Of a stretch of DNA of 64,000 nucleotides, positions 4,529-49,918 are shown in pieces. The stretch's first letter is position 1; each line of letters begins with the position of its first letter. Source of the stretch: Candidatus Tayloriibacteriota bacterium (GTDB lineage Bacteria > Patescibacteriota > Minisyncoccia > Phycocordibacterales > PALSA-1337). Below the pieces are notes generated by a model. That model was not told where the DNA came from. It did no database searches and saw only the letters and a list, made by a program, of their open reading frames with translations. Location of the stretch: positions 18,947 to 82,946 of the forward strand of contig JBAXUB010000001.1 in assembly GCA_037129895.1 (NCBI GenBank), read 5' to 3'. The position numbers and the translations under genes were made by a program.

Positions 4529-5818
4529 CTATATATGAAAATACGACTTGAAGACTTCTGGATCTTTGAATTTACCGATAATGGCCATATTGAGTCCCCT
4601 ATTAACGAAAACTTCATTCGCCAATGCCTTTATATCTTCTGCGGTTACAGAATCCACCTTCTTCATGAATTCCTCCGGCGTATCTATCTTCCTCTTCAAG
4701 ATTTCCTGAAAACCACAATACTCCGCACGTGACTCCGATGTCTCAAGTTCGAGTAATGTAGTGCCGGAAATATAATCCTTGACCTTCTTCAATTCACCGG
4801 CACTGACGAGATCGGTTTTCAATATTTTACATTGATTCAATATCTCCTTTATCGCCTCCTCGACTCTGGCATTATCTACACCCGCCGAGATAGTGAGGTC
4901 TCCATGATCTGTGAACGGATCGTGTGAAGCACGAATGTAATAACATATACCGAGCTCATCTCTCATCTTTGAAAATAATCTCGAACTCATACCCCCGCCG
5001 AGCAGGGTTGTAAGTACGGTCATAGCTGGTATTCTCGGATCATTGATAGAGAACGTTCTCGAAGCAATCACGAGATGTGTTTGATCAGTTTCTTTGAATA
5101 AAGTCTTAATGGCCGGTTCCTCCTGGGACTCGACAACTGGGAGCTTCGGCTTATTAATATCGGTGGCAACAGTCGCGAACATCTTCTCTATTTTGTTGAT
5201 CGTGGCCTTTTCATCGAATGATCCGGAAACCAATACTGTCGTAGCAGAACTCACGTAATGATCCTTCCTATAGCTAACAAAATCAGCACGACCAAAAGAT
5301 TTGATATTATCCTCAGTACCCAAGACACTCCAACCTGCAGGACTATCGCCAAACATAAGCTCCGACAAGACTTCATGAACTCTGCGTTGAGGAAGATCGT
5401 TATACATGCGTACTTCTTCGATGATCACACCTTTCTCTTTGTTTATCTCTGACTCATCGAAAAGCGGATTCATATACATATCTGAGACAATATCCAATAT
5501 TTCATCCAAACGATGTGACGCCGCTTTGGCATAGTAGCCAGTGAATTCTTGAGTGGTAAAAGCGTTGTACTGAGCACCCACTGAATCTAATTCGCGAGAT
5601 ATATCGCTGGCTTTTGGTCTCCTCGGTGTACCCTTGAAAACCATATGCTCCAAGAAATGAGATATGCCATTCTGTTTCTTTGTCTCATATTTCGAGCCAG
5701 CTTCAACCATGACTAATACTGTGACCGAAGGATTCTCAGCCATTGGTACAGTAACGACTCTAAGTCCGCTTTTTAATATTGTTTTATTGAATTTCATATA
5801 TTCTAACAAACTACTCAT
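4529..5818 (-). CDS. M16-family (insulinase/pitrilysin-like) zinc peptidase
   Basis: Inverted zinc motif HFLEHMVF (HxxEH) near the N-terminus; about 430 aa. Confidence 0.8.
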   Translation of the reverse strand: MSSLLEYMKFNKTILKSGLRVVTVPMAENPSVTVLVMVEAGSKYETKKQNGISHFLEHMVFKGTPRRPKASDISRELDSVGAQYNAFTTQEFTGYYAKAASHRLDEILDIVSDMYMNPLFDESEINKEKGVIIEEVRMYNDLPQRRVHEVLSELMFGDSPAGWSVLGTEDNIKSFGRADFVSYRKDHYVSSATTVLVSGSFDEKATINKIEKMFATVATDINKPKLPVVESQEEPAIKTLFKETDQTHLVIASRTFSINDPRIPAMTVLTTLLGGGMSSRLFSKMRDELGICYYIRASHDPFTDHGDLTISAGVDNARVEEAIKEILNQCKILKTDLVSAGELKKVKDYISGTTLLELETSESRAEYCGFQEILKRKIDTPEEFMKKVDSVTAEDIKALANEVFVNRGLNMAIIGKFKDPEVFKSYFHI

Positions 5819-7151
5819 TCCCTATGCCGATTTTTTGCTTCAAATATTTGAGCAGATCAGCTTCGGTAACTCTCTCCTGTTTACCTGAATCACGATCTCG
5901 AACAGTTACACCTGTACCTTTCTCTATAGTCTCAAAGTCAACAGTGACGCAGAGTGGCGTACCGATCTCATCTTGACGACGATAACGTTTTCCTATATTG
6001 CCATTATCATCATAGTCAGTCATCGGTATCTCCTTCTGAATCGTCTTGAATATCTCCTCTGCTTTCTTTATGAGCTCCGGTTTATTCCTTAGCAACGGAA
6101 ATACGGCCACCTTATAAGGTGCTACCCTCGGATGAAGCTTGAGATATGTTCTCTTGTCACCACCTAAGTCATCTTCAGTATATGCATCACAGAGTATAGC
6201 GAGTACTGTCCTATCTAGTCCGAATGATGGCTCTATACAATGTGGTATGAATCTCTCTTTGGTTTCTTCATCATAATAGGAAAGATCAACTTTACTGAAA
6301 TCAGAATGCTGTTTGAGATCGAAATCTCCACGATAGGCCAATCCATATAATTCCTTTTTACCAAAAGGAAAATCAAACTCAAAATCGATAGTTCGTTTCG
6401 AATAGTGTGCACGGTCAGCCTGTGCCACTTCCAACTCGTGGACTTTGGAAGCGTCTAGCCCGACATCGGCCGTGAATGCGAGAACTTCTTTCCTGAAATA
6501 TTCAAATGATGTCTCCCACAGTTTTGGATTGACGAAATACTCTATTTCCATCTGTTCAAACTCGCGAGATCGGAAAAGGAAATCCCTAGGCGCTATCTCA
6601 TTACGGAAAGCCTTTCCTATCTGTGCCATACCAAACGGTAGTCTCGGATGTTGAGTGTCCAATACATTCTTGAAATTCACGAACATTCCCTGTGCAGTCT
6701 CTGGTCGTAGATATGATACCGACGAAGCGTCTTGGATAGCTCCAACATGAGTCTCGAACATCATATTGAACTTCCTCTCTTCACCCAAGTCTCCACCACA
6801 ATCTGGACACTTCTTTTTGTTAGTAGCATCACCTTCTATCTGATCGGCACGAAATCTATGCTTGCATTTCTTGCACTCGACGAGTGGATCAGCGAAGCCT
6901 GATGCGTGACCACTAGCTTGCCAGACTCTCTGATTCATGAGGATGGCTGCATCAACTCGGAACATGTTTCTCTTCCCCACAACGAAGCGGCTGTACCAAG
7001 CATCTTTGATGTTAGATTTCAACGCTTCTCCGAAAGGACCATAGTCCCATGTACCGGCTAAACCGCCATATATCTCTGAACCTTGGAATATAAAACCACG
7101 TCGCTTACAAAGTGCGACTACCGCATCCATTTTGTCTTCTTGTTTATTCAT
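5811..7151 (-). CDS. glyQS: Glycyl-tRNA synthetase, class II alpha2 type
   Basis: N-terminus ...RRGFIFQGSEIYGGLAGTWDYGPFG... is characteristic of dimeric GlyRS. Confidence 0.9.
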   Translation of the reverse strand: MNKQEDKMDAVVALCKRRGFIFQGSEIYGGLAGTWDYGPFGEALKSNIKDAWYSRFVVGKRNMFRVDAAILMNQRVWQASGHASGFADPLVECKKCKHRFRADQIEGDATNKKKCPDCGGDLGEERKFNMMFETHVGAIQDASSVSYLRPETAQGMFVNFKNVLDTQHPRLPFGMAQIGKAFRNEIAPRDFLFRSREFEQMEIEYFVNPKLWETSFEYFRKEVLAFTADVGLDASKVHELEVAQADRAHYSKRTIDFEFDFPFGKKELYGLAYRGDFDLKQHSDFSKVDLSYYDEETKERFIPHCIEPSFGLDRTVLAILCDAYTEDDLGGDKRTYLKLHPRVAPYKVAVFPLLRNKPELIKKAEEIFKTIQKEIPMTDYDDNGNIGKRYRRQDEIGTPLCVTVDFETIEKGTGVTVRDRDSGKQERVTEADLLKYLKQKIGIGNE

Positions 7152-7196
7152 ATCGCTATTCTACACTTAAAAAGGTAACAGTGACAAGTATAAATA

Positions 7197-9131
7197 CTAC
7201 TTCACCACCACACCATCTCCATCATTATATATTGGGTCTGTACTGAATCTCGTTGAGAGCTCCTCTTGTGTACTAGTCAATTGTGTTCCTGTAAACGCAT
7301 CTGCCGCAGTTAGAGATGTCTGATTGACCAGAGTTACTGGCTGACCGATCTGGTTCACCGCTGGAGTAACTGACAATTGGAATGATACTTCTCTCCTTCT
7401 CAATGAATTCAATGTATAAGTACCAACATTTCCAACTACCCAAGTGACGCGACCACTATTCGGGTCATAAGTAATATTTTCATTACTTGGATTGAAGACG
7501 TTTAACCATTTGACTGAAGGCGGTAAAGTGGTTGTAACTTGTGCATTTCCAACAGCGTTTGAAGTATTGTCTACATTCCATATTATTGTGAAAGTTGAAG
7601 GCTGTTCTACTTTCGGAGGTATTGGTCCAGTATTCACGAATGGTCCAACACTACGCACAACTCTACCAGACAGGCTCACGCTAGAAGAGACTCTGATATT
7701 ACGTGCAACCACTGAATGCAAATTACTAGAAACACTAGTCTCCTGTGTACGATCTCCAGAAACACTCGTCGATAGAGTCACCAATGGATTGGTTACAGCC
7801 CGAACCGAGGAACCGAAATCTCTTGGAGTGAGACGGAAAGATACAGTACCTTTAGACCCCGCTCCTACACTAGCGAATTCTGGATTTGTTTGTTGATTCC
7901 AGACGATCTCATCTGAACTGGAGTTAAAATATCCTCTATCAGGCGACACCTTGGTCTTGTCATATGCAGAACCAGATAGTTTCAATGTAATGATTAGATT
8001 TGATACAGATACTGGCAGATTGTTGACCCAGCTCACCTCTACCTGATCTTCTTGTCCGAACTGTCCGACATAATCACTATTTGAACTGTTACCATTTATT
8101 GACATAACCAACGATATGAAAGGCTTTTGCACGGTCATATCCTGCTCCGCTGCAACATATTGAGTCCCTATGAGCGTAGCATCTGATACACTCGTTGCTC
8201 CTGCCGTGAAGCGAAAGACTTTCGTATCACTATTTTCTCCCGTCAGTTTGCCGTGAATCGTTACTACCCTCTCCGCACCAGCTGGTATATCACCGATTTT
8301 CCATATCGTATTGTTTGTCTGTGGTTTCAAATCAGCAGATATGAAGGTGAAGCCAAATGGATACTGAGATTTCAATAATATATTTTTCAATGTTTCTTGC
8401 GAGTTTGATTTTACTTTTACGGTCATATCGAATTCTTGACCAGATGACACTTCTTTATATGAATCAACCGTTAAGCTTATCGGTGATGAGTTGATGAGGA
8501 CATCATAAGTCTTGCTCTTGGTAAAAAGTGAGTTTGATCCTTTGACTTTATACGTAACATTGACGGCGATCGTCTTCTGCATATTTTCTTCACCGAATAT
8601 TATGGCTCTAACTATTTTCTCCGACGACTTGCCAGCCGCCAAGTCACCAACCAATTCATGATAGGTCTTCATCTCCTTCGTCGAATCATTGGGGTCTGTT
8701 GTGCCTGCTGGGAAATCAACCGCCAAGTCAGCCGTCTGTAAGTCAACATTATTTCGATTCGTCACAATGACGCCGAAAGATACTGGCGTACCGCCAGGTA
8801 TAGAAACTGGACCATTGATACTGATATCTATATTGTCTGCCGAAATGAGATTGGCACCATTTAGAAACAAATATGCTCCGAGACCTATAGCGATGACACA
8901 GAATATTACTGAACCGATCAATATCTTCTTCAAATATGACATAGAGTGATCTTCGAAATTTTGGTTAAGTGTCGTCTCCACAGGCTTCTCTACCGGCTCT
9001 TCCCATGAAGTCTTCATCTCTGACGGCTTGTCATTGAAGCGCAGCTTGCGCCTAGTTCGCACGTCAGGAGCACCTCTCGAATACAGAGATTTCTTCAATT
9101 CTTCAATGTAGCTTTTATCTTCTGACTCCAC
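7197..9131 (-). CDS. Large membrane-anchored surface protein: N-in, one TM, Ser/Thr/Asn/Val-rich beta-like ectodomain. Function unknown.
   Basis: Single TM ILIGSVIFCVIAIGLGAYLFL after a charged N-terminus. The remainder is a low-complexity beta-rich extracellular region. Confidence 0.5.
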   Translation of the reverse strand: MESEDKSYIEELKKSLYSRGAPDVRTRRKLRFNDKPSEMKTSWEEPVEKPVETTLNQNFEDHSMSYLKKILIGSVIFCVIAIGLGAYLFLNGANLISADNIDISINGPVSIPGGTPVSFGVIVTNRNNVDLQTADLAVDFPAGTTDPNDSTKEMKTYHELVGDLAAGKSSEKIVRAIIFGEENMQKTIAVNVTYKVKGSNSLFTKSKTYDVLINSSPISLTVDSYKEVSSGQEFDMTVKVKSNSQETLKNILLKSQYPFGFTFISADLKPQTNNTIWKIGDIPAGAERVVTIHGKLTGENSDTKVFRFTAGATSVSDATLIGTQYVAAEQDMTVQKPFISLVMSINGNSSNSDYVGQFGQEDQVEVSWVNNLPVSVSNLIITLKLSGSAYDKTKVSPDRGYFNSSSDEIVWNQQTNPEFASVGAGSKGTVSFRLTPRDFGSSVRAVTNPLVTLSTSVSGDRTQETSVSSNLHSVVARNIRVSSSVSLSGRVVRSVGPFVNTGPIPPKVEQPSTFTIIWNVDNTSNAVGNAQVTTTLPPSVKWLNVFNPSNENITYDPNSGRVTWVVGNVGTYTLNSLRRREVSFQLSVTPAVNQIGQPVTLVNQTSLTAADAFTGTQLTSTQEELSTRFSTDPIYNDGDGVVVK

Positions 9132-9820: not shown

Positions 9821-12800
9821 TTATCTAATATCCAACTTCACATTCAATTCACCGACAGCCTGACTCTCCCCAGTCACACTCGAGAACGATATACCTTTGA
9901 CTGAAGTAGCTGCAGAAATCGCCTTCTCATTCTTTTCAATAAATGTCTTGCCGGCTACATCCGTATCAACTATGAGAGATACCTTATCATTCACGGTAAA
10001 GCCCCTATCCTTGCGAAGATCCTGAATAACGCGTATGAGTTCACGAACTGTTCCCTCTTCTTTCAGTGCTGGAGTTATAGCGATATCTAACTCGACTTCT
10101 TGAGTGAGACCCGCCAAAAACATAACTTCCTTTACATTGACTTCATCCATGATGAGTTCACAGAACTCTGGACTGAGTCCCGCCGACTTCTCTGTATTAT
10201 TGACCGTCAATTTTGCCAAAGGTTGTCTAACGTTGATCTTGGCTTTCATACGGGCTTCGAGACCTTTCGAAGCAATGTCTCTAACTATTTGCATGTTCTC
10301 GATCAATTTCGCATCGGATTTTCCAACTTCTGGCCAAGACGTGAGATGTACGCTATTAGTAGAGCCGAACAATTCCTGATGTAGATACTCAGCATAGAGT
10401 GGAGTAAACGGCGCCATCAATCTCGCTAGAGTTGAGAGCACGTATCTAGTAGTAGATAGAGCCTGTATCTTATCTACACCATCATTCTTGAACCGATCTC
10501 TAGATCTACGCAGATACCATTGAGAGAGTTCAGCTATAAAATCACGGATCGCCCTGGTCGGTTCAAAGAATTTGTAATTGTCTAGATTTTTCGTTGTTGT
10601 TTCTATCAACTGACTTAGTTTGGCGATGATCCATCGATCCAAGATATTGGAAGACAACGATCTGTCCACTGCCCTCTTTTCTAATGTAGCATCACCCAAC
10701 TCCTCGACACTTCTATTCTCATATAGTTTATAGAATGCTGTAACATTGGATATGAGATTGAATACTTTCTTCACAACCTCATCAACAGTTTTCTCATCAA
10801 AATTCTTTGAATCTCCTGGCTGATTGACGGAATACATCCAAAAACGTAGTGCGTCTGCTCCATATTTATCCATCATATCCCAAGGACTAACGACGTTGCC
10901 GATGGACTTACTCATCTTCTTGCCTTTGGCATCCAGGATATGTCCCAAACAGATTACATTCTTGTACGCCTTACCTTTACCCATGATCGCTCCGATAGCA
11001 TGCAATGTATAGAACCATCCACGTGTCTGATCGATCGCCTCCGAGATGAAATCCGCCGGATAAGCAATGTCCCGACCGATCTCTTCATTCCCGCCCAACT
11101 CATGCTCCTGCGAAAACGGCATCGATCCGGAATCGAACCAGACGTCCAAAACTTCCCTAGCACGACTCATCGTCCCGCCACACTGGCAATCCAACTTTAC
11201 ATCATCTATGAATGGTTTATGTAGATCAAGCTCATAATCCGCATTGTGAGGCAAGATAGAAAAATCCACTGGTCGCACTTCTGCGTTTGCGATGAAATCT
11301 TCCTGCTTTCGGTAGATTCTAGCACTATCGATATCATGACCTGCTGCAGCTGCAAACAATGTATAGGCCGGAGTCTCATGAGTGACGATCAATATCGTTT
11401 TGCCCTCATATTTACTTTCCATATCATATAGGAATTCACCCATACGTCTCTTTATATCCATATAGTCTTCCCCTCCTTCTGGTTTCCATAACCATCGGTC
11501 ATTCTCGCCGCATGCACGAGCCAATTCATCCACACCCTTCCCATCGAAAATTCCCGCACCATATTCTCTGATCCGATCATCTACAATAACTCTCGACGAA
11601 TCGAGGCCGACTACATCACGTACTATCTCAGCAGTTTCTCTAGTTCGTAGGAGTGGAGATGTAAAGATAAGATCGATTTTTGATGATACCAACTTCGCAG
11701 CAGAATCACTCACGTCTTTCTCGCCTTTCTCGGTCAAGTTGATGATGGAAGTAGCCGCAGTATCTAGAATATTCCTAACATTGTTCTCTGCTTCGCCATG
11801 TCTCATGACCAAGTATTTGTTCTTCGATCTCTTGGCCAATTCAGAAACAACACCAACCACTCTAGTAGATTTACACTTCTCACATGTCCATACAGGCAAC
11901 GGCGTCCCCCAATAACGCTCTCTCGATATTGCCCAATCCTTGATCTCACGTAGCCACTCACCAAAACGACCCTCCTTGATATGTTCGGGTTCCCAATGTA
12001 TCCCCTCATTTTCCTTAACTAATGTGTCGCGCAAACTAGACATCCGCAAATACCATGAATCGCGAGCGAAATATATGAGAGGTGTATGACAACGCCAACA
12101 GAATGGATATGTGTGTTCATACTTTTCCTTGGCAAACAAAAGTTTTCGTCCAGCCAAATCCTTTATGATAGTGACATCCGTGCCAGGATCTTTGACGAAA
12201 AGACCAGCCAATGATCCGGCCTCTTTCTTGAAAGTACCATCATCATTCACCAAGTGGAATTTCGGAAGCCCTACCTTCGTCCCCAATTCAAAATCATCCT
12301 GACCATACATAACTGCTATATGAACGATTCCAGTTCCGTCAGACGTTGTAACGAACGGAGCGGCGTAGACTCTATATGCATTCGCTAGCTTCTCCTTTTC
12401 GGTACCTTGCACATTGTCCTTGAGAAAGGGATACAAAGGGTTATAGGCGAGACCTACCAATGTTCCACCTTTCACAGTTTCCAACACGCTCGCATTTTCA
12501 AAATGTGACTTCAATGCTTCGAACCTCTCTTTCGCCAAAATCACCACTTCCCCGCTTGCGACTTTTACTTTTACATATTCGATATCGGCATTAATCGCTA
12601 AACCAACATTCCCTGGCAACGTCCACGGAGTAGTCGTCCATGCCAACAAGTATGTATTAGCTTCACCAACGACTTCAAATTTTACATAAACTGATAGATC
12701 TTTGACCGTCTCATATCCTTGCGCCAATTCGTGTGAAGAAAGACCCGTCCCACAACGTGGGCACCACGGAACTACTTTGTAGTCTTTATAAAGTAGTTTC

Positions 12801-13345
12801 TTGTTTTCAGCAGTTTTGATTATACTCCAAACCGACTCTATATATTGCGACTTGTAAGTTATATATGGATTCTCTAGGTCCACCCAATAACCCATACGAT
12901 CAGTGAAGTCCTCCCATTCATGTACGTACTTCCAGACACTCGCTTTGCACTTCTCATTGAATAGGCCTATGCCGTATGACTCTATTTCTTTTTTGGACTT
13001 CAGCCCGAGTTCCTTTTCTACTTGTAACTCAACTGGCAGACCATGTGTATCCCATCCACCTTTTCGACGTACATGATAACCCTGCATCGTCTTGTATCTA
13101 GGAATTGCATCCTTGAAAGCACGCGCCTCTAGATGATGGATACCTGGTCTACCGTTAGCTGTCGGAGGTCCTTCATAAAATACGAACTCGCCCTTTGGAG
13201 ACTCCTTGCCCAATGACTTTTCGAAAACGCTATTCTCTTTCCAATACTTCAAAATCGCCTCTTCACGCAATGCATGGGGACTTTTCACTGAATTTGTTGA
13301 ATACTGGCTATTCTCTCGATCAGTTTTGTTGTTTGGAAGAGGCAT
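9821..13345 (-). CDS. ileS: Isoleucyl-tRNA synthetase with an inserted histidine-phosphatase (PGAM-like) domain
   Basis: PGIHHL (HIGH) and KMSKSIGN are present, with an editing domain. Residues about 508-700 (YLVMRHGEAENN...LIVTHETP...) form a nested RHG phosphatase domain. Confidence 0.9.
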   Translation of the reverse strand: MPLPNNKTDRENSQYSTNSVKSPHALREEAILKYWKENSVFEKSLGKESPKGEFVFYEGPPTANGRPGIHHLEARAFKDAIPRYKTMQGYHVRRKGGWDTHGLPVELQVEKELGLKSKKEIESYGIGLFNEKCKASVWKYVHEWEDFTDRMGYWVDLENPYITYKSQYIESVWSIIKTAENKKLLYKDYKVVPWCPRCGTGLSSHELAQGYETVKDLSVYVKFEVVGEANTYLLAWTTTPWTLPGNVGLAINADIEYVKVKVASGEVVILAKERFEALKSHFENASVLETVKGGTLVGLAYNPLYPFLKDNVQGTEKEKLANAYRVYAAPFVTTSDGTGIVHIAVMYGQDDFELGTKVGLPKFHLVNDDGTFKKEAGSLAGLFVKDPGTDVTIIKDLAGRKLLFAKEKYEHTYPFCWRCHTPLIYFARDSWYLRMSSLRDTLVKENEGIHWEPEHIKEGRFGEWLREIKDWAISRERYWGTPLPVWTCEKCKSTRVVGVVSELAKRSKNKYLVMRHGEAENNVRNILDTAATSIINLTEKGEKDVSDSAAKLVSSKIDLIFTSPLLRTRETAEIVRDVVGLDSSRVIVDDRIREYGAGIFDGKGVDELARACGENDRWLWKPEGGEDYMDIKRRMGEFLYDMESKYEGKTILIVTHETPAYTLFAAAAGHDIDSARIYRKQEDFIANAEVRPVDFSILPHNADYELDLHKPFIDDVKLDCQCGGTMSRAREVLDVWFDSGSMPFSQEHELGGNEEIGRDIAYPADFISEAIDQTRGWFYTLHAIGAIMGKGKAYKNVICLGHILDAKGKKMSKSIGNVVSPWDMMDKYGADALRFWMYSVNQPGDSKNFDEKTVDEVVKKVFNLISNVTAFYKLYENRSVEELGDATLEKRAVDRSLSSNILDRWIIAKLSQLIETTTKNLDNYKFFEPTRAIRDFIAELSQWYLRRSRDRFKNDGVDKIQALSTTRYVLSTLARLMAPFTPLYAEYLHQELFGSTNSVHLTSWPEVGKSDAKLIENMQIVRDIASKGLEARMKAKINVRQPLAKLTVNNTEKSAGLSPEFCELIMDEVNVKEVMFLAGLTQEVELDIAITPALKEEGTVRELIRVIQDLRKDRGFTVNDKVSLIVDTDVAGKTFIEKNEKAISAATSVKGISFSSVTGESQAVGELNVKLDIR

Positions 13346-17212: not shown

Positions 17213-17275
17213 CTATTTGCAGACCTGAGGAGAAACCGGCTTTTTCAAAACAGCATCGATCTTTCGAGCAATCTT
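17213..17275 (-). repeat. Authentic glyA 3' end; direct-repeat partner of 16035..16097
   Basis: See the paired repeat feature. Confidence 0.8.
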
Positions 17276-18430
17276 TACAAAATCTTTCTCTTTCCTACCA
17301 CGAGTAGTCTCTGCGGCGGTGCCAAGTCGTATGCCTGACGGGTCAGCTGGTGGACGTGTGTCGAAAGGAATGGCGTTCTTGTTGACGATGATACCTGCTT
17401 GTTCGAGTCTAGTACTAGCCTCTTTACCAGTAACTCCGCCAGCACCATTTTCATTCACATGACCGTCATGCCAAGTATCTACCAAAACTAGATGACTATC
17501 CGTGCCACCAGAGATGACCCTCCAACCAAACTTTCTCAGGTGTTCCGCCAAAACTGCAGCATTCTTCACAACTTGTGCAGCGTATTTCTTGAATTTTGGA
17601 CTAGCTGCTTCTTTGAGTGCCACTGCAACAGCAGCAATCTGATTTATATGTGGTCCACCCTGTAGTCCAGGAAAAACTGCCTTGTCTATCTTCTTGTCCA
17701 ATTCCCTATCATCGCGTCTCACGAATATGAGAGCTGCGCGTGGGCCACGGAGAGTTTTGTGTGTAGTCGTCGTAACAATATCAGCATATGGAAAAGGTGC
17801 AGGATATGCACCACCAGCTACCAATCCAGCGATATGAGACATATCAACCATGAGTAAAGCCTGAGCCGCGTCCGCAACTTCCCTCATCTTGACCCAATCA
17901 ATAATACGAGGATAGGCCGTATAGCCAGCAACTATGATCGCCGGCTTTTCTGCCACAGCCTTTTCTCGAAGCTGATCGTAATTCAATACTTCAGTTGTCT
18001 TATCTACACCATATGGCACCTGAGTCCAAAACTTTCCTGTAGCAGAAACTTTGTGCCCATGCGTAAGGTGTCCTCCTTGATCGAGTGACATCCCCATGAT
18101 CTTACCGCCTTGTGGGACTAACGCGGTATAGACTGCCAGATTCGCTGGTGAACCCGAGAGAGCTTGCACGTTTACATGCCACTTATCATGATCGAGCCCG
18201 AATAATTCTAACGCCCTTTCCATACACAGACTCTCTATCTTATCTACTATCTCATTACCCCCATAATATCTCTTTCCCGGATAACCCTCCGCATATTTAT
18301 TGGTAAGTTCTGAGCCAAGTGCCTCTAACACATCATTCGAAACATAATTCTCCGAAGCTATCAGGTTGACGACTTTTTTCTGTCTATTCTTTTCTGACAA
18401 TATTAATTTTTTTATTTGTTTATCTTTCAT
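17213..18430 (-). CDS. glyA: Serine hydroxymethyltransferase (start at internal Met MKDKQIKK)
   Basis: LIASENYVS...YAEGYPGKRYYGG signature; PLP-lysine region present. Confidence 0.9.
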   Translation of the reverse strand: MKDKQIKKLILSEKNRQKKVVNLIASENYVSNDVLEALGSELTNKYAEGYPGKRYYGGNEIVDKIESLCMERALELFGLDHDKWHVNVQALSGSPANLAVYTALVPQGGKIMGMSLDQGGHLTHGHKVSATGKFWTQVPYGVDKTTEVLNYDQLREKAVAEKPAIIVAGYTAYPRIIDWVKMREVADAAQALLMVDMSHIAGLVAGGAYPAPFPYADIVTTTTHKTLRGPRAALIFVRRDDRELDKKIDKAVFPGLQGGPHINQIAAVAVALKEAASPKFKKYAAQVVKNAAVLAEHLRKFGWRVISGGTDSHLVLVDTWHDGHVNENGAGGVTGKEASTRLEQAGIIVNKNAIPFDTRPPADPSGIRLGTAAETTRGRKEKDFVKIARKIDAVLKKPVSPQVCK

Positions 18431-18751
18431 ATGTATATCGTAACATAACATACCGCCTACAAAAAATGGTCCGCTACACCCAGTGTGTAACGGACCACCA
18501 ACCACCCATACAAAGGGAAGAAATCAACGACACACGACGCGACTTTAGTGACAAAATAGAATTTGTCCAATCCTTAGCCACTCATACGGTGATATGTCGT
18601 TTTTGTTTGACCATTGAAGGTCTGCGAGCCAAATGGCCCAGTACGGGACGCGAACTCATAGTTCGAATCTCTGATGAAAAGATTACTCCTCGTCCGCAAT
18701 TAATGCAAGCTAGTTATACACACGTTATCCACAGGCTATTCCGTGACTCGT

Positions 18752-19402
18752 CTACTTGAGCAGTTTGCGCATCTCCTCCAAGAAATCACTTTTCACTTCC
18801 TCGAAAGGCCTATTGGCGTCTATCGTAACATGCGGCACTTTCTTCAGAAATTTCAAATACCCCTTCCTCACCTTTTCGTGGAATATGATCTTTCTATTAT
18901 CGAAATGATCATACTTGGTAGTATTTCTGTTCGACTCATTGCGAGATCTCGCACGACGCAGACCAACCAGAGGATCCACATCCACAAACACATAGAGATC
19001 TGGGACATGTACCAACTTGTCACGAAGTAACCAGAAGATTTCCTCGAGATCGCCATTTGTTTGAGCTGCGACTTGATATGCAAAAGAAGAACCATCAAAT
19101 CTATCGGCCACCACCGACATTCCCGATTTCAATGACGGCTCGATCACATTCACCACATTGTCGAAGCGGGCGGCAAACATAAGACACAGTGTCGTCTCAG
19201 CCGGCGCAGTCTTCGCTAGAGGATTCTTGAGTGCAGCATTCCTGATGATCTCCGCATAAGGCGATCCTCCAGGTTCACGAGTTATGAGAGCAACACCCGG
19301 CATCTCCTTCGCGAGAGCGGCCATGAGTGAAGATTTACCGGAACCTTCTCCACCTTCAACAGCGATGAACATCGGTCTCTTTTTATTTCTCAATTTTTTC
19401 AT
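18752..19402 (-). CDS. tmk: Thymidylate (dTMP) kinase family dNMP kinase
   Basis: P-loop FIAVEGGEGSGKSS and TREPGGS motifs. Confidence 0.85.
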   Translation of the reverse strand: MKKLRNKKRPMFIAVEGGEGSGKSSLMAALAKEMPGVALITREPGGSPYAEIIRNAALKNPLAKTAPAETTLCLMFAARFDNVVNVIEPSLKSGMSVVADRFDGSSFAYQVAAQTNGDLEEIFWLLRDKLVHVPDLYVFVDVDPLVGLRRARSRNESNRNTTKYDHFDNRKIIFHEKVRKGYLKFLKKVPHVTIDANRPFEEVKSDFLEEMRKLLK

Positions 19403-19447: not shown

Positions 19448-19930
19448 CTACCTCTTCCTTGTGAATAACTCAGTCGCTCCTTCGACTAGGAAGACTCTAC
19501 TTATCCCCGCTTTGATCATTCGATCCCAGCAAGGCTTGCAACACCACCAATGACCATACAGGTATAGATCGGCTCCCCTGACTTTACCGCCACCATGTCT
19601 CGATATAGCATCCTTGACCGCCCTTGATTCTGCATGTTGTCGACAAGAAGCACAACCTGGACAAAGCCAATACTTCTGTCCTGATGGTATTTTCAACAAT
19701 CTTCTCACACAAAACCTTTCCTTATGAAAAGTTAGCAGTTTACTGTTCTTGATTGCTGACTGATTGGCACCTTTTCCTAGAATAACACCATCCCTGACGA
19801 CGACAGCACCCGTCGGGTGTTGTGTATCCGTTGACTTTTCCTCGCATAGCTTCATCGCCTCCTTCATATACAGATTGTTCGATGATACATATTCAACACT
19901 CCTGCCTTCTGGCATATATGGATAATTCAT
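19448..19930 (-). CDS. dCMP deaminase family protein (zinc-dependent CDA fold)
   Basis: HAE zinc motif (CRQHAESRAV) and PCxxC (CCKPCWDRM), plus an additional CPGC zinc site as in dCMP deaminases. Confidence 0.75.
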   Translation of the reverse strand: MNYPYMPEGRSVEYVSSNNLYMKEAMKLCEEKSTDTQHPTGAVVVRDGVILGKGANQSAIKNSKLLTFHKERFCVRRLLKIPSGQKYWLCPGCASCRQHAESRAVKDAISRHGGGKVRGADLYLYGHWWCCKPCWDRMIKAGISRVFLVEGATELFTRKR

Positions 19931-20006: not shown

Positions 20007-20849
20007 ATGATTATGACCAAGTTTGACCAAATATACCAAGACATTGTGAAAAACATTATGAAGAAAGGCATGGTCGAGTTCAGTGAGAGAACTGGACACG
20101 AAACGAAAGTTCTAGTCGGTGTACATTTCCAAGTCGACATAGAGAAAGACGGCTTCCCCATCCTCACACTCCGCAAGTCGCCGATAAAGATGTTCGTCGC
20201 GGAACAAGTATGGTTTTTGTCTGGATCTAGAAAGCCAGAGGACTTCCTCCGAAATTATACGCACATATGGGATGACTTCACCAATCCAGGCGATGTCGTC
20301 ACTGTCGCATACGGATATAGATGGCGTAAACATTTTGGCAGAGACCAGATAGGACTATTAGTCGATCTATTAAAAAAAGAACCAAGCTCTAGACAAGCTG
20401 TCGTAGTAACATGGGATCCTGCACAGGATGGATTATCTATCGTAAAAAAGAAAAATGTTCCTTGTCCATATACATTCACCGTTAATATCGTTGCTGGCAG
20501 ATTGCACCTGCACAATATAGTCAGATCCAACGATGTAATGCTCGGATTCTCAGCGGATGTCCCAGGATTCGCACTACTCCAATGTATTCTCGCTCAAAAG
20601 CTAGGGGTGAGACCTGGTATATACTCTCACTCGATTTCCAATGCTCATATATATGATACACATTATGACGGTGCGAAAGAGTTGATCAAGAGGAAAAACA
20701 AACACAAGAAGATAACCCTGACTTTACCTAAGGACGCCTTTGACAGAGCAGAAAAGAAAGATCCGACACTCGTCGACCAGATAGTGGAAAACCTCGGAAA
20801 ACAATATAAACCGATGGAACCGATAAAGGGCTTGAAATTAATATTATAA
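20007..20849 (+). CDS. Thymidylate-synthase-fold (ThyA family) enzyme with Asp at the Asn177-equivalent. Possibly a dCMP methyltransferase or hydroxymethylase rather than canonical TS.
   Basis: Gap-free by-eye alignment to E. coli ThyA: ERTGHET, GFPILTLRKS, VWFLSGS, the VPCP nucleophile and VRSNDVMLGFSADVPGFALL. Confidence 0.8.
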   Translation: MIMTKFDQIYQDIVKNIMKKGMVEFSERTGHETKVLVGVHFQVDIEKDGFPILTLRKSPIKMFVAEQVWFLSGSRKPEDFLRNYTHIWDDFTNPGDVVTVAYGYRWRKHFGRDQIGLLVDLLKKEPSSRQAVVVTWDPAQDGLSIVKKKNVPCPYTFTVNIVAGRLHLHNIVRSNDVMLGFSADVPGFALLQCILAQKLGVRPGIYSHSISNAHIYDTHYDGAKELIKRKNKHKKITLTLPKDAFDRAEKKDPTLVDQIVENLGKQYKPMEPIKGLKLIL

Positions 20850-20861
20850 CCAACACACCCA

Positions 20862-21491
20862 ATGTCTATCATCACAAAAACTGAAATAGTAGAACTGATA
20901 AAGAATGGTGTACTTTCCATACGACCAGCTCTGGATAAGTTCCAATTACAAGAACACTCTATAGACCTACGTCTCGGCTATACTTTCATGATACCAAAGA
21001 TGTGGCACATGACTCCGAAAGGCCGTGAATCATTGGACATCACCCATTTCGATAAGCGTAACCATGAATACTTCGAAGTTGTCGAACTCGAACAAGGACA
21101 GTATTTCGAATTATTACCGCAGGAATACATCCTCGTCTCAACCTTAGAGACGATAAAGATGCCTAACAACTTGATGGGCGTTCTCTACCCGAGAGCTTCG
21201 ACCAATCGAAAAGGGCTTTCATTGGACCTTTCAGGAATAATAGATGCTGGCTATGACGGACAGTTAGTATTGCCTATCAGGAACAATACCCGCTCTCAAG
21301 CTATCAGACTATTCCCTGGCGAACGCCTATGCCAAGTTGTTTTCCAGGAGTTGAAAAGTTCTGTTACACCGAAACCAGGCAAATATCATCAGCGAGACAT
21401 CATCGAGGGTGTTGTCACTGAAAATAGAGAGGAGGCTGATCTCATATCCAGTGGCGATATTAAAGTGTTAAAGGAAAAGTTTAAGGTGTAA
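20862..21491 (+). CDS. dCTP deaminase/dUTPase-superfamily protein. Motif III is dUTPase-like and lacks the Dcd catalytic Glu.
   Basis: Dcd-like N-terminus. GIIDAGYDGQLVLPIRN...FPGERLCQVVF closely matches dUTPase motif III. Confidence 0.7.
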   Translation: MSIITKTEIVELIKNGVLSIRPALDKFQLQEHSIDLRLGYTFMIPKMWHMTPKGRESLDITHFDKRNHEYFEVVELEQGQYFELLPQEYILVSTLETIKMPNNLMGVLYPRASTNRKGLSLDLSGIIDAGYDGQLVLPIRNNTRSQAIRLFPGERLCQVVFQELKSSVTPKPGKYHQRDIIEGVVTENREEADLISSGDIKVLKEKFKV

Positions 21492-21664: not shown

Positions 21665-22165
21665 ATGAAATGCTTCATAATCTCATGTCTCACAGCTGAC
21701 GGCTATATAGGGAAACATTCCACTCACGCAGCGATGTGGACGAGTAAAGAGGACAAGAAACGCTTCATCGAACTAACGAAGAAGGCCGGTGTGATCGTCA
21801 TGGGTCAAAACACTTGGACAACCCTCGGTGGCAAACCATTGAAAGACAGACTCAATATCGTGTACTCACCTACCCCGCTCGAACCTGTCGCAGGTATGGA
21901 AGTCACGACCAAGGATCCTGTGGAATTACTGCGTGACCTAGAAGCTCGAGGCTTCAAGGAAGTTGCCATATGTGGAGGTTCTCAGATATACACAATGTTT
22001 ATGAAAGCTGGCCTCGTCGATACTCTCTACCTCACTATTGAACCGATAGTATTCGGCGATGGTATGAGACTGTTCAAAGAGGATCTAAATAGTAAATTGA
22101 CACTGACTGAATGCACGAAGACAGACGGCGGGACATTGCTTCTAACATATTCTGTGATCAGGTAA
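21665..22165 (+). CDS. folA: Dihydrofolate reductase family protein
   Basis: 166 aa with DHFR/RibD-C-like pattern (IVMGQNTW..GKPL..R.NIV.S). Sits beside the thyA-family gene. Confidence 0.6.
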   Translation: MKCFIISCLTADGYIGKHSTHAAMWTSKEDKKRFIELTKKAGVIVMGQNTWTTLGGKPLKDRLNIVYSPTPLEPVAGMEVTTKDPVELLRDLEARGFKEVAICGGSQIYTMFMKAGLVDTLYLTIEPIVFGDGMRLFKEDLNSKLTLTECTKTDGGTLLLTYSVIR

Positions 22166-22225: not shown

Positions 22226-22253
22226 AAAAAAATCGCACCCAATATGAGTGCGA
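22226..22253 (-). terminator. Intrinsic terminator after the 22277..22783 gene
   Basis: Minus strand reads TCGCAC-loop-GTGCGA followed by TTTTTTT. Confidence 0.6.
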
Positions 22254-22276
22254 CAACACGAACATAAAAGAACAAT

Positions 22277-22783
22277 TCAAAATGTAGAGAGTTTCCCTCT
22301 ATTGGACTCTATCGAACGTGACAGACTACTAACACATTCGACAAGCTCGTCCAACTTTCTGAAATTGAAATGCCGTACCAAGTCCGGCCTGTCCAGATGA
22401 GCAAACTTGATCGACTCTAGAAACGAGATCGTCCGATTGGCTTGTGCATGGTCACCTAGAGTGAGTCCAACCAGGAGAGGCTTGCGAGCTTTCGCACGTG
22501 CCTCGACTTCTTGCACACACCGAGGGGTTGAGCACACTGACAACCAGATCATGAGATCACAAGTCTTCACAGGATCACTGATCCGAGGAACTTCGACAGG
22601 TAGATCATCCGTGATCTTCAAGACCGGCTCCACCGCATATACGTGGAATCCGGGCAGCTGTCTCAGTTTTTCCAAGAAATACAATACGTCCGTGAACAAA
22701 AAACCATCCGGAATACCCGGGGCCAACGCCAAGGGAAAAGTTACATATGTTTTCATAATCAGCTCTGAAACAAAGCCTACCAT
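22277..22783 (-). CDS. Hypothetical protein of higher GC than its neighbours
   Basis: 168-aa ORF. No motif recognised. Local GC is near 50% against about 40% around it. Confidence 0.5.
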   Translation of the reverse strand: MVGFVSELIMKTYVTFPLALAPGIPDGFLFTDVLYFLEKLRQLPGFHVYAVEPVLKITDDLPVEVPRISDPVKTCDLMIWLSVCSTPRCVQEVEARAKARKPLLVGLTLGDHAQANRTISFLESIKFAHLDRPDLVRHFNFRKLDELVECVSSLSRSIESNRGKLSTF

Positions 22784-25074: not shown

Positions 25075-25908
25075 CTACCTTCTCGTATCACACAAATCAA
25101 TCAAGTTTTCGAATAACGCGAGAACTGTCATCGCCCCTACCCCACCAGGAACTGGTGAAATCGCCCTGACTACTCCTGAAACTGCAGCAAAATCAACATC
25201 CCCAACCAATCTCTCAGTGCCTATACGAGAAATGCCAACATCTATAACGACCTGATCAGGATTGACGTGCTCAACTCTTATAAGTCCAGGCTTTCCAGTC
25301 GCCACTATCAATATATCTGCTTCCTTTGTACCAAAAACCAGATCGGCTGTCTGACTATGACAAACCGTCACTTTCGCACCAGCGGTCTCACACATTGCGG
25401 CAATAGGTTTTCCAACTAGATCAGACCTACCAACAACTGTTACATTCTTTCCTTTGAGTAAAAATCCGTAACTATCCAATAATTCCTTTATACCCCTAGC
25501 TGTTGCTGGCATTATACCCTCGCCGTGTGACCATTTGGCAACGTTCGCTGACGTGAGAGCATCAACGTCCTTATCTGGATCTATAGCCTCGATCACTGCA
25601 AATTTATCAATGCTTGAAGGCAGTGGAAGCTGAACGATGATGCCATTTATACTGTCGTCGTTATTCAATGATTCTATATGATCTAGGAGTTCTCGTCGTG
25701 ATATACCTTCACTAAACTGTTTGTGGAGAACATCTACACCGATTTTCTCTGCAAACAACTTTTTTGCACGGATAAATGATGTCGAATCAGCCCTTTCACC
25801 AACTTGAATGATGGCCAATTTTGGCATAAAGGAAAGTTTCGCGACCCCATTTTTCAATAGAGGAAGCCTCGTTTCCCTAGTTTTTCGGCCATCAATAATG
25901 ATAGTCAT
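25075..25908 (-). CDS. folD: Bifunctional methylene-THF dehydrogenase / methenyl-THF cyclohydrolase
   Basis: MTIIIDGRK... start; LAIIQVGERADS and PGGVGAMTV motifs. Confidence 0.9.
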   Translation of the reverse strand: MTIIIDGRKTRETRLPLLKNGVAKLSFMPKLAIIQVGERADSTSFIRAKKLFAEKIGVDVLHKQFSEGISRRELLDHIESLNNDDSINGIIVQLPLPSSIDKFAVIEAIDPDKDVDALTSANVAKWSHGEGIMPATARGIKELLDSYGFLLKGKNVTVVGRSDLVGKPIAAMCETAGAKVTVCHSQTADLVFGTKEADILIVATGKPGLIRVEHVNPDQVVIDVGISRIGTERLVGDVDFAAVSGVVRAISPVPGGVGAMTVLALFENLIDLCDTRR

Positions 25909-26008
25909 GATATGAAGAGCATACCATAGAAAATTACCAAACAGGAAATCGTAGGAACTACTCGTACACATAACTAAATCAATATTGATATATTCAACTC
26001 ATACATCT

Positions 26009-48604: not shown

Positions 48605-49918
48605 ATGATCGACAACATCCTACACAAAATACGCAGCTATATCATTCCGGACAAGGTATTCAACTTCTTTCAGCCGATATACCACTGGAAACTATCACTT
48701 CTCGCGGCTATCTGGTATCGCTTCCCTTCTAGAAAGATAAAGGTGATAGCGGTAACTGGTACAAAAGGTAAAAGTTCAACCGTAGAGATAATAAACGCGA
48801 TATTAGAAGAGGCTGGCTATAAGACCGCCGTATCAAACACTATCAGATTCAAAGTTGGTGATGAGTCTTGGGATAATCTATACAAAATGAGTATGCCTGG
48901 AAGATTCGCAGTTCAGAAACTCATCCGCAAAGCGGTCCGAGCTGGTTGTAACTATATAATTATCGAGATGACTTCTCAGGGAGCATTATTATACAGGCAC
49001 AGATTCATAGAATTGGACGCTCTCGTATTTACCAATATTTCTCCAGAACATATCGAGGCACATGGTTCTTATGAAAATTACCTATTCTCCAAGCTTTCGA
49101 TCGCCCAGAATATGGGCCGTTCCAAGAAGAAAGATCGCGTCATCATAGCGAACGCCGATGATGAGGAAAGTAGTAAATTCCTAGAAGCCCCAGTTGATAG
49201 AAGGATGACTTTCAGTGTGAAAGATGCAGAACCTTATGAAGTTAACAAGGAAGGTTTGAATTTCACATTGGCCGGCAAGCCAGTTCATTCTCATTTATCC
49301 GGTTTATTCAACCTTTACAATATCTTAGCGGCAGTCGCTGCGGCTCACAGCCAAAATGTTTCTGACAATGAGATCGCTCGAGCCTTGGACGGCTTCACTG
49401 GCATCCCAGGAAGAGTGCAGAAAATCGAAGTTGACTCATCAGATTTTCCACAAGAAAGTATCGGCACTACAAAGAAGCAAGATTTTACTGTAATAGTTGA
49501 CTACGCGCATACAGCAGATTCGCTAGAAAAGCTTTATCAGGTTTTCCAATCTTCTAGAAATATCTGCGTACTCGGTGGAACAGGTGGTGGCAGAGACACA
49601 TGGAAACGCAAAGAAATGGGCACAATCGCTGATAAATATTGCGAGGAAATCATTCTCACAGACGAGGACCCTTATGATGAAGACCCAGCGAAAATCGTCG
49701 CCGACGTTGCAGCTGGTATCAGTTCTCAAAAGCCAACCATCATCATGGACCGTCGCGAAGCCATCCGTGAAGCCGTAAAGCGTGCAAAGACTGGAGATGC
49801 TATCCTCATAACAGGTAAAGGCACTGACCCATACATCATGGGTGCCAAAGGTCTGAAAACCCCTTGGTCTGACGCGAAGGTCGCCAAAGAAGAGCTAGTC
49901 AAAGCATTGGTCAAGTAG
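48605..49918 (+). CDS. murE: Mur ligase family protein (MurE-like, lacks the N-terminal domain)
   Basis: VIAVTGTKGKSST P-loop; DYAHTADSLEKL; C-terminal Mur ligase domain. Confidence 0.55.
   Translation: MIDNILHKIRSYIIPDKVFNFFQPIYHWKLSLLAAIWYRFPSRKIKVIAVTGTKGKSSTVEIINAILEEAGYKTAVSNTIRFKVGDESWDNLYKMSMPGRFAVQKLIRKAVRAGCNYIIIEMTSQGALLYRHRFIELDALVFTNISPEHIEAHGSYENYLFSKLSIAQNMGRSKKKDRVIIANADDEESSKFLEAPVDRRMTFSVKDAEPYEVNKEGLNFTLAGKPVHSHLSGLFNLYNILAAVAAAHSQNVSDNEIARALDGFTGIPGRVQKIEVDSSDFPQESIGTTKKQDFTVIVDYAHTADSLEKLYQVFQSSRNICVLGGTGGGRDTWKRKEMGTIADKYCEEIILTDEDPYDEDPAKIVADVAAGISSQKPTIIMDRREAIREAVKRAKTGDAILITGKGTDPYIMGAKGLKTPWSDAKVAKEELVKALVK

Follow-up and report, generated by a model that had tools for sequence, protein, structure and literature searches.

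The gene at 20862..21491 on the forward strand of the 64,000-nucleotide stretch of Candidatus Tayloriibacteriota DNA that we analysed (hereafter the window) encodes a protein with the fold of deoxycytidine triphosphate (dCTP) deaminase, Dcd, and with a proline where that enzyme carries its catalytic glutamate. Our comparisons make it highly likely that this Dcd-like protein is a pyrophosphatase and not a deaminase, and the public name 'dCTP deaminase' is very probably wrong for it and for the other members of its proline-type (Pro-type) subfamily because the catalytic Glu is absent. The best explanation overall, to which we give a rough probability of 0.5, is that deaminase chemistry has been lost and that the protein would serve as a pyrimidine deoxynucleoside triphosphate (dNTP) pyrophosphatase, making deoxycytidine monophosphate (dCMP) for the product of the gene just upstream, a thymidylate synthase (TS) homologue, ThyA, with aspartate at the position of E. 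coli N177 (Asp-type ThyA). The gene and the two codons that set it apart are listed here.

20862..21491, forward strand: Dcd-like protein of the Pro-type subfamily; intact open reading frame (ORF) of 209 amino acids with an ATG start
21195..21197, forward strand: Ala112, codon GCT, aligned with S111 of E. coli Dcd and with S72 of canonical dUTPase (Dut); a lineage-specific Ser-to-Ala change
21273..21275, forward strand: Pro138, codon CCT, aligned with the catalytic Glu (E138 of E. coli Dcd, E129 of the M. tuberculosis enzyme)

The key residues of the protein are P110, R111, A112, R116, D128, Y131, P138, E154, Q158 and K174-Y175, together with a conserved C-terminal tail that holds E191 and G198. 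Those for triphosphate binding and alpha-phosphate hydrolysis (the PRS motif, R116, D128, Y131, 'PGER..Q' and K174-Y175) are kept or have become more Dut-like.

A Dcd scaffold with proline at the glutamate column

Sequence models and the predicted structure place the protein clearly in the Dcd branch of the trimeric dUTPase superfamily. The Pfam DCD model (PF22769) matches residues 3-163 at 113.8 bits (1e-32), against 45.5 bits for the Pfam dUTPase model, and with 116.4 bits the protein clears the cut-off of 92.8 of the NCBIfam 'dCTP deaminase' model TIGR02274, in agreement with the original prediction that the N-terminus resembles dCTP deaminase. The canonical dut models remain under their cut-offs (TIGR00576, 39.9 against 102.55; NF001862, 38.1 against 103), as does the archaeal dUTPase model NF002598, whose 49.3 bits lie far below the required 130. 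With an alignment of 104 sequences as input, AlphaFold2 gave a model with a predicted confidence (pLDDT) of 91.1 that is mostly beta-strand, with the Dcd fold; an input of 28 close homologues had given an unusable model (pLDDT 37). The best Foldseek matches of the model are the bifunctional Dcd:Dut enzymes of M. tuberculosis and B. halodurans and E. coli Dcd (E ~1e-15), followed by a tier formed by Pyrococcus P45 (9ln0) and a Thermococcus dUTPase (8y1w; E ~1e-11), while the canonical Duts trail at E ~1e-7. In phmmer the match to 4xjc has an E-value of 4e-18. Motif V of the canonical Duts (RGxxGFGS[TS]G) was not found at the C-terminus of the translation.

In dCTP deaminase (EC 3.5.4.13) the catalytic Glu activates the water that attacks C4 of the base (E138 in E. 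coli, E129 in M. tuberculosis, E145 in M. jannaschii). The original prediction had placed a Pro at this site and had named a profile alignment that restored the Glu as its refutation; pairwise, multiple and profile-profile alignments confirm the Pro. Aligned by phmmer to four solved Dcd and Dcd:Dut chains, the protein reads 'GQLVLPIRN' where 4xjc has 'GQITLELFN' and 2qlp, 2qxx and 4a6a have 'GHITLELSN'. A MAFFT alignment of about 150 representatives, which left 136 usable sequences when three references and the query are included, has Glu in this column in 105 sequences and Pro in 22. When the Pro-family profile was aligned with the Glu-family profile in hhalign (probability 100, E 1.7e-48), 'G~L~iPi~N' stood over 'GqITLEl~N' and the Glu was not restored. 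Neither the multiple nor the profile-profile alignments placed an acidic residue close to the Pro138 column.

The replacement is a property of a whole subfamily. Pro occupies the column in all 120 of the nearest protein clusters, which come from Patescibacteria metagenome-assembled genomes, are 67-97% identical to the window protein and are nearly always called 'dCTP deaminase' where the source gives a name. It also occupies the column in 78 of 78 readable loci from a related set of 79 species-level genomes labelled Taylor-, Kaiser-, Colwell-, Parcubacteria or Paceibacterota. Across the family alignment (29-86% identity) R111, R116, G125, D128, G133, P138, N141, G153, R155 and E191 are invariant. 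The superfamily arginines and the Asp among them act in triphosphate binding and alpha-phosphate hydrolysis in the mechanisms of Dut and Dcd:Dut. Since the Pro is fixed in every cluster and every readable genome and these residues are invariant across the family, the Glu-to-Pro change is under selection and not a sign of decay. A pseudogene or a sequencing error is likewise ruled out by the intact ORF, by the fixation of the Pro in all relatives and by the recurrence of Ala112 in an independent assembly. An exhaustive search of 1.8 billion representatives gave 4934 matches, of which only 15 reached E <= 1e-30. In a crude, single neighbour-joining (NJ) tree, calculated with the diagnostic column removed and carrying no support values, 19 of the 20 retained Pro sequences form a pure clade that adjoins the Glu-less enzyme of Pyrococcus (Pfu P45). 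Scans with the window protein and with P0129 and P0136 found no relatives in viral contigs. A tblastn search of a phage collection returned only relatives below 36% identity, and a recent phage origin of the gene was rejected on this ground.

Comparison with the Glu-type enzymes shows what has been kept and what has changed. Dcd and Dcd:Dut share with the Pro-type family the fold and the best structural matches (Foldseek target template-modelling score 0.76-0.86), an arm at the N-terminus, the R..SS..R motif (with Ala for its first Ser in the window protein), the hydrolytic Asp within an ID.G motif, the C-terminal KY tail and, on the proposed reading, a place in thymidylate supply from dCTP. 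The Pro-type proteins differ from them in having Pro for Glu, PRS for GRS, Tyr for Phe/Trp and 'GER' for 'GMR', in forming a separate clade, and in a C-terminal helical extension of about 25 residues (E..LI..G....LK..F/Y) that is typical of the family. Asp128, the hydrolytic Asp of the ID motif, is present and invariant; with the deaminase Glu replaced by Pro, the protein does not qualify as a bifunctional Dcd:Dut (EC 3.5.4.30).

Could the protein nevertheless deaminate dCTP through another acidic residue, alone or combined with dUTPase activity, or have become a non-catalytic nucleotide-binding regulator of the neighbouring enzymes? It does score above the NCBI dCTP-deaminase cut-off and keeps R116 (E. 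coli R115), which is invariant in the Pro-type family. In E. coli Dcd, both S111 and R115 of the RSSxxR motif assist deamination; the S111 position is Ala112 in the window protein and in P0001, and Ser in all other relatives. E191, also invariant, is part of the C-terminal tail, the segment that in this superfamily folds over the active site. However, the E191 column is acidic in the tails of Glu-type Dcd as well, the Glu column is Pro in every member with no acidic residue near it, and a separate zinc deaminase is encoded alongside. The strong conservation of the hydrolytic and phosphate-binding residues in turn argues for catalysis. We therefore regard a surviving deaminase or an inert regulator as very improbable. 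A defence-type dCTP deaminase was also considered and ruled out: those proteins belong to the zinc-deaminase family, and the sole, weak NF041025 match falls on the neighbouring deaminase.

Several residues of the Pro family point towards dUTPase. P110, Y131, L135 and E154 separate it from Glu-type Dcd, as does P138, and the first four are the residues found in E. coli Dut; motifs II-IV are Dut-like. The peptide GIIDAGYDGQLVLPIRNNTRSQAIRLFPGERLCQVVF, which the original prediction had quoted as matching dUTPase motif III almost residue for residue, lies within the translation of the gene, and its Dut-like flavour is borne out by these four positions. The closeness of the match was overstated: of the 37 residues of the segment, 14 are identical in E. 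coli Dut, 16 in B. halodurans Dcd:Dut and 11 in E. coli Dcd. Canonical trimeric Dut (PF00692 / TIGR00576) shares the superfamily and the motifs P-R-S, I-D-x-x-Y-x-G-x-L and P-G-E-R-x-x-Q with the Pro-type proteins, which differ from it in having no motif V, in remaining under the family cut-offs and in being accompanied by separately encoded true Duts in many of the same clusters.

The Glu-less dUTPases of Thermococcales (P. furiosus P45, 9LN0; T. pacificus, 8Y1W) prove that the Dcd scaffold can be a pure pyrophosphatase. They share with the Pro-type proteins the Dcd fold without Glu, the 'GER' of motif IV (E154 here) and an adjoining place in the NJ tree. Pfu P45, which is identical to PDB 9ln0, has Met at the Glu column and is an efficient dUTPase without dCTP-deaminase activity (PMC5122711). 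The differences are also substantial. Identity to the Pro-type proteins is about 27-32%, the residue at the Glu column is Pro and not Met, and the protein here has 209 residues against 156, with an internal insert and the C-terminal extension; it falls outside the NF002598 model, and the Pro-type partners are Asp-type ThyA and a deaminase, often with a canonical Dut. The 'dUTPases' of Rudivirus and of STSV1 were tried as further Glu-less comparators and dropped, as they keep the Glu (VDAGFEGQLTIEL).

An Asp-type ThyA in a cellular thymidylate cluster

The window comes from the core genome of a cellular member of the Patescibacteria and not from a phage. It encodes isoleucyl-, arginyl- and methionyl-tRNA synthetases (IleRS, ArgRS and MetRS), a sigma-70 factor, ribosomal protein L11, NusG, Pol I and a Mur ligase, and the same neighbourhood is present in a 618-kb contig. 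The Dcd-like gene sits in a conserved cluster, with three genes on the reverse strand and three on the forward strand, and with FolD nearby.

17213..18505, reverse strand: serine hydroxymethyltransferase (SHMT), supply of methylene-tetrahydrofolate (methylene-THF); Pfam SHMT 9.1e-161; syntenic
18752..19402, reverse strand: thymidylate kinase (Tmk); Pfam Thymidylate_kin 3.6e-34; syntenic
19448..19930, reverse strand: zinc enzyme of the dCMP/cytidine-deaminase family (HAE...PCxxC), divergent from the ThyA-like gene; Pfam dCMP_cyt_deam_1 5.6e-15
20007..20849, forward strand: ThyA-like gene, 12 bp upstream of the Dcd-like gene; Pfam Thymidylat_synt 2.4e-53
21665..22165, forward strand: dihydrofolate reductase (DHFR) / RibD_C-like reductase, downstream of the Dcd-like gene; Pfam RibD_C 3.5e-19, DHFR_1 1.1e-16
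25075..25971, reverse strand: FolD, methylene-THF dehydrogenase/cyclohydrolase; Pfam THF_DHG_CYH domains; more loosely associated, in the same position in one related genome (L001)

The deaminase-like gene is syntenic in nearly all related loci, and the DHFR-like gene in most, standing either before or after the Dcd-like gene. In the 79 genomes the cluster is flanked by genes for aminoacyl-tRNA synthetases, L11, NusG and SecE.

The ThyA-like protein keeps the catalytic cysteine, Cys153, and has Pro154 at the position of E. coli H147 and Asp184 (20556-20558) at that of N177; in the alignment to solved TS structures 'sadv' stands over 'pfni'. Changing Asn177 to Asp switches TS from deoxyuridine monophosphate (dUMP) to dCMP, and the two positions that best tell phage enzymes that modify cytosine apart from ordinary TS are 177 and 147 (PMC8670742). 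Among phage proteins, the nearest relatives of the ThyA-like protein are the ThyAs of PaMx74 (39.5% identity, E 7.5e-61) and other Xp12-like phages, with the same P147/D177 pair, and the PaMx74 match is better than that to any solved canonical TS (8e-34). The ThyA-like gene is thus probably one for a predicted dCMP methylase (5-methyl-dCMP synthase) in a cellular genome. The presence of a DHFR gene implies that its reaction yields dihydrofolate (DHF), that is, reductive methylation rather than hydroxymethylation. The association with the Dcd-like gene is complete at the cluster loci: in all 72 genomes in which both genes are readable, a Pro-type Dcd-like gene adjoins an Asp-type ThyA, and the Pro at H147 of the ThyA is likewise conserved in the 72.

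The same functions are found together in phages. PaMx74 has in a row a nucleotide pyrophosphohydrolase (PRA-PH), an Asp-type ThyA, a dCMP deaminase and DHFR. Asp-type ThyAs make 5-methyl-dCMP, as shown for phage enzymes; the ThyA-linked phage 'dCMP deaminases' prefer 5-methyl-deoxycytidine nucleotides and yield thymine nucleotides; and PaMx74 replaces C entirely with 5-methylcytosine (5mC) (bioRxiv 10.1101/2024.12.05.627091). All four PaMx74 functions have a predicted counterpart in the window, with the Dcd-like gene in the pyrophosphatase slot, and the product of 19448..19930 is a candidate 5-methyl-deoxycytidine nucleotide deaminase. This deaminase homologue also has a Cys-rich insert.

More distant Pro-type members, 38-44% identical to the window protein, tend to keep the same company. 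ThyA, the Dcd-like gene and the deaminase run in one direction in L084; in L090 ThyA, DHFR and the Dcd-like gene adjoin Tmk; and in L092 (6672-7973, reverse strand) a single 433-residue fusion of deaminase and ThyA adjoins the Dcd-like gene, its deaminase domain being homologous to that of the window. All three ThyAs are of the Asp type. L093 is a phage-like contig that encodes a helicase and a primase-polymerase; at 5685-6588 (forward strand) the Pro-type gene is directly preceded by a MazG-like gene with the N-terminal domain of dGTP diphosphohydrolase (PF18909), and at a distance of 3 kb there is a deaminase that belongs to the same subfamily. A cytidylate kinase gene neighbours the Dcd-like member in L083, and two distant members have no informative neighbours. 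The trio of Asp-type ThyA, Pro-type Dcd-like protein and deaminase is robust to divergence, with gene order varying. Directly after the Dcd-like gene of L090 there is also a 345-residue protein (6659-7696, forward strand) without a Pfam match, in which 'SSRRAITPSF' recalls the 'SRR..' motif of TS; this protein is possibly a second, highly diverged enzyme with the TS fold.

The resemblance to the phage module raises the question of whether the cell, too, replaces its cytosine. The original prediction had linked the Dcd-like gene to modified cytosine and to the removal of dCTP from the pool, and its enzyme would then be a dCTPase/dUTPase that excludes dCTP from a 5mC-substituted genome, as in phages Xp12 and PaMx74 or, functionally, as T4 gp56 does. 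The cytosine-specific signature of ThyA (Asp at N177, Pro at H147) and the correspondence of the four-function module with that of a C-to-5mC phage speak for part of this idea. The cluster, however, belongs to the core genome of a cell, and removal of dCTP is not required because the deaminase, Tmk, DHFR and SHMT fit 5-methyl-dCMP as an intermediate of thymidine monophosphate (dTMP) at least as well; Tmk, deaminase and DHFR suffice for such a role. Our literature search turned up no account of these bacteria replacing C with 5mC. We hold a dCTP-excluding enzyme of this kind to be very unlikely, and it is unlikely that the chromosomal cytosine of these bacteria is largely 5mC.

The proposed likeness to T4 gp56 survives as a functional analogy only. 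Gp56 matches PF08761 (dUTPase_2), which the window protein does not, and the PaMx74 PRA-PH/MazG-like enzyme matches PF01503; neither has detectable sequence similarity to the protein here (BLASTP E = 1), which is mostly beta-strand with the Dcd fold and is hosted by a cell. What the three would share is the proposed job of turning dCTP into dCMP for a ThyA-family enzyme that modifies dCMP and, in the case of PRA-PH, the slot in a module of pyrophosphatase, Asp-type ThyA, dCMP deaminase and DHFR.

A possible route to thymidylate without dUMP

With the Glu absent, a nucleotide pyrophosphatase (dUTPase, dCTPase or both) in place of a deaminase is a sensible alternative, in line with the original suggestion of a dUTPase or dCTPase-dUTPase. 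We propose that the protein would hydrolyse a dNTP to the monophosphate and pyrophosphate (PPi) on the Dcd scaffold, and that its main substrate would be dCTP, giving dCMP and PPi. Asp-type ThyA would convert the dCMP into 5-methyl-dCMP, with methylene-THF oxidised to DHF, while DHFR and SHMT would recycle the folate. The deaminase would turn the 5-methyl-deoxycytidine nucleotide into a thymine nucleotide, and Tmk would phosphorylate the product. The deamination step of the 'dCTP to dUMP' reaction of Dcd:Dut would thereby have been shifted to after methylation, bypassing dUMP, so that the Glu would no longer be needed. The shift in ThyA substrate, the added zinc deaminase and the loss of Glu from the Dcd scaffold can accordingly be read as a co-adaptation. 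We consider dCTP as the physiological substrate, together with the 5-methyl-dCMP route, to be about an even proposition.

In organisms with Dcd:Dut, it is this enzyme that channels dCTP to dUMP for use by ThyA, and Dut has the sanitising role (PMC5519681). Of the 79 related genomes, at least 28 have a canonical Dut with motif V within the same cluster (for example L004, 8115-8537, and L013, 8139-8558, both on the reverse strand), so the Dcd-like protein is there an additional enzyme and not simply the cell's dUTPase. The canonical Dut, where present, would sanitise dUTP. We favour a dCTPase over a dUTPase because Dut co-occurs in this way and because the invariable partner ThyA should take dCMP, not dUMP. 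A divergent 200-residue Dut-like gene was also seen after DHFR in three loci (L001, 11358-11960, forward strand; L042; L077).

The strongest rival is a plain dUTPase that converts dUTP to dUMP and PPi and nothing else, keeping uracil out of DNA as the Pyrococcus and Thermococcus enzymes do. On sequence alone it would be the default. The Met-bearing Pfu P45 is such an enzyme and the Pro clade adjoins it in the unsupported NJ tree; the four convergent residues P110, Y131, L135 and E154 are those of Dut. Set against this are the canonical Duts in the same cluster, the shortfall against the archaeal dUTPase model and the tie to Asp-type ThyA, which should not use dUMP, so that the product of a plain dUTPase would be a dead end. 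We think this reading possible but rather unlikely.

A second rival keeps the gene context and changes the purpose. The protein might be a pyrophosphatase that sanitises 5-methyl-dCTP, a functional analogue of human DCTPP1: 5-methyl-dCTP that had arisen by over-phosphorylation of the 5-methyl-dCMP intermediate would be returned to 5-methyl-dCMP, 5mC would be kept out of DNA and the base would be sent on to the deaminase. Such a role would explain the coexistence with Dut and, in L093, with a MazG-like enzyme, and a hydrophobic Pro beside base positions C4/C5 might accommodate a methyl group at C5. Yet nothing in the sequence points to recognition of a 5-methyl group, and the source of the dCMP for ThyA is left unexplained. 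Either this role or a dual dCTP/dUTP specificity as in T4 gp56 would fit the context nearly as well as dCTP hydrolysis does. We judge 5-methyl-dCTP sanitising as such to be distinctly unlikely.

Several observations weigh against dCTP hydrolysis feeding a 5-methyl-dCMP route. The sole characterised Glu-less enzymes with the Dcd fold are dUTPases, the convergent residues are Dut-like, and base specificity cannot be read from the sequence. Glu mutants of the bifunctional M. jannaschii enzyme reportedly keep dUTPase activity and are not known to hydrolyse dCTP. The 64-kb window yielded no canonical Dut, which makes a dUTPase role harder to dismiss for this genome. The motif that is PRSS in 119 of the 120 clusters and in 78 of 78 genomes is PRAS in the window protein and in P0001, which comes from another assembly and is 97% identical to it, and the Ala in place of the conserved Ser may weaken catalysis. 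No ThyA lies near the Dcd-like genes of L083 and L085, and in L093 the neighbouring MazG-like and Dcd-like enzymes need not be interchangeable. Finally, the counts of Asp-type ThyA cover the cluster loci, and a second, Asn-type ThyA or a ThyX may be encoded elsewhere in the genomes.

It is tempting to extend the proposed route beyond the window. The whole class (Paceibacteria, and related Patescibacteria) may make thymidylate without dUMP, from dCTP through dCMP and 5-methyl-dCMP to dTMP by way of a new dCTP (or 5-methyl-dCTP) pyrophosphatase; this wider claim is tentative, and we would put it somewhat short of even odds. To our knowledge, thymidylate synthesis through dUMP is treated as universal in cells. 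If the proposal is true, it would describe a cellular, dUMP-independent route, the counterpart of one so far met only in 5mC phages. The public 'dCTP deaminase' annotations of Patescibacteria, which number in the hundreds, would name the wrong reaction, and the error would spread, as these proteins pass the NCBI model. For such ultra-small symbionts, metabolic reconstructions would change, and the origin of the 5mC-phage module would come into question. The family would also be a natural example of the Dcd, Dcd:Dut and Dut scaffold switching chemistry, with deamination moved to a later enzyme, and possibly a new enzyme for the handling of dCTP or 5-methyl-dCTP. If the protein is just a second dUTPase, the consequence is a modest correction of annotation. 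We found no published account of a cellular 5-methyl-dCMP route or of a Glu-less Dcd in Patescibacteria, in a literature whose coverage here was incomplete, so novelty is not proven.

Other features of the window

Further observations concern other parts of the window. The IleRS gene (9821-13345, reverse strand) carries a histidine-phosphatase insert (PF00300) at about residues 511-675, an architecture that is the same in L001. Between the DHFR and L11 genes lies an ORF of 168 residues (22277-22783, reverse strand) that has no match in Pfam or NCBIfam and no homologue in the 79 related loci, and there is a strong terminator-like hairpin at 22232-22254. The Mur-ligase-family protein encoded at 48605-49918 (forward strand), with Mur_ligase_M and C domains, could be FolC and not a ligase of cell-wall synthesis, in view of the folate genes of the window.

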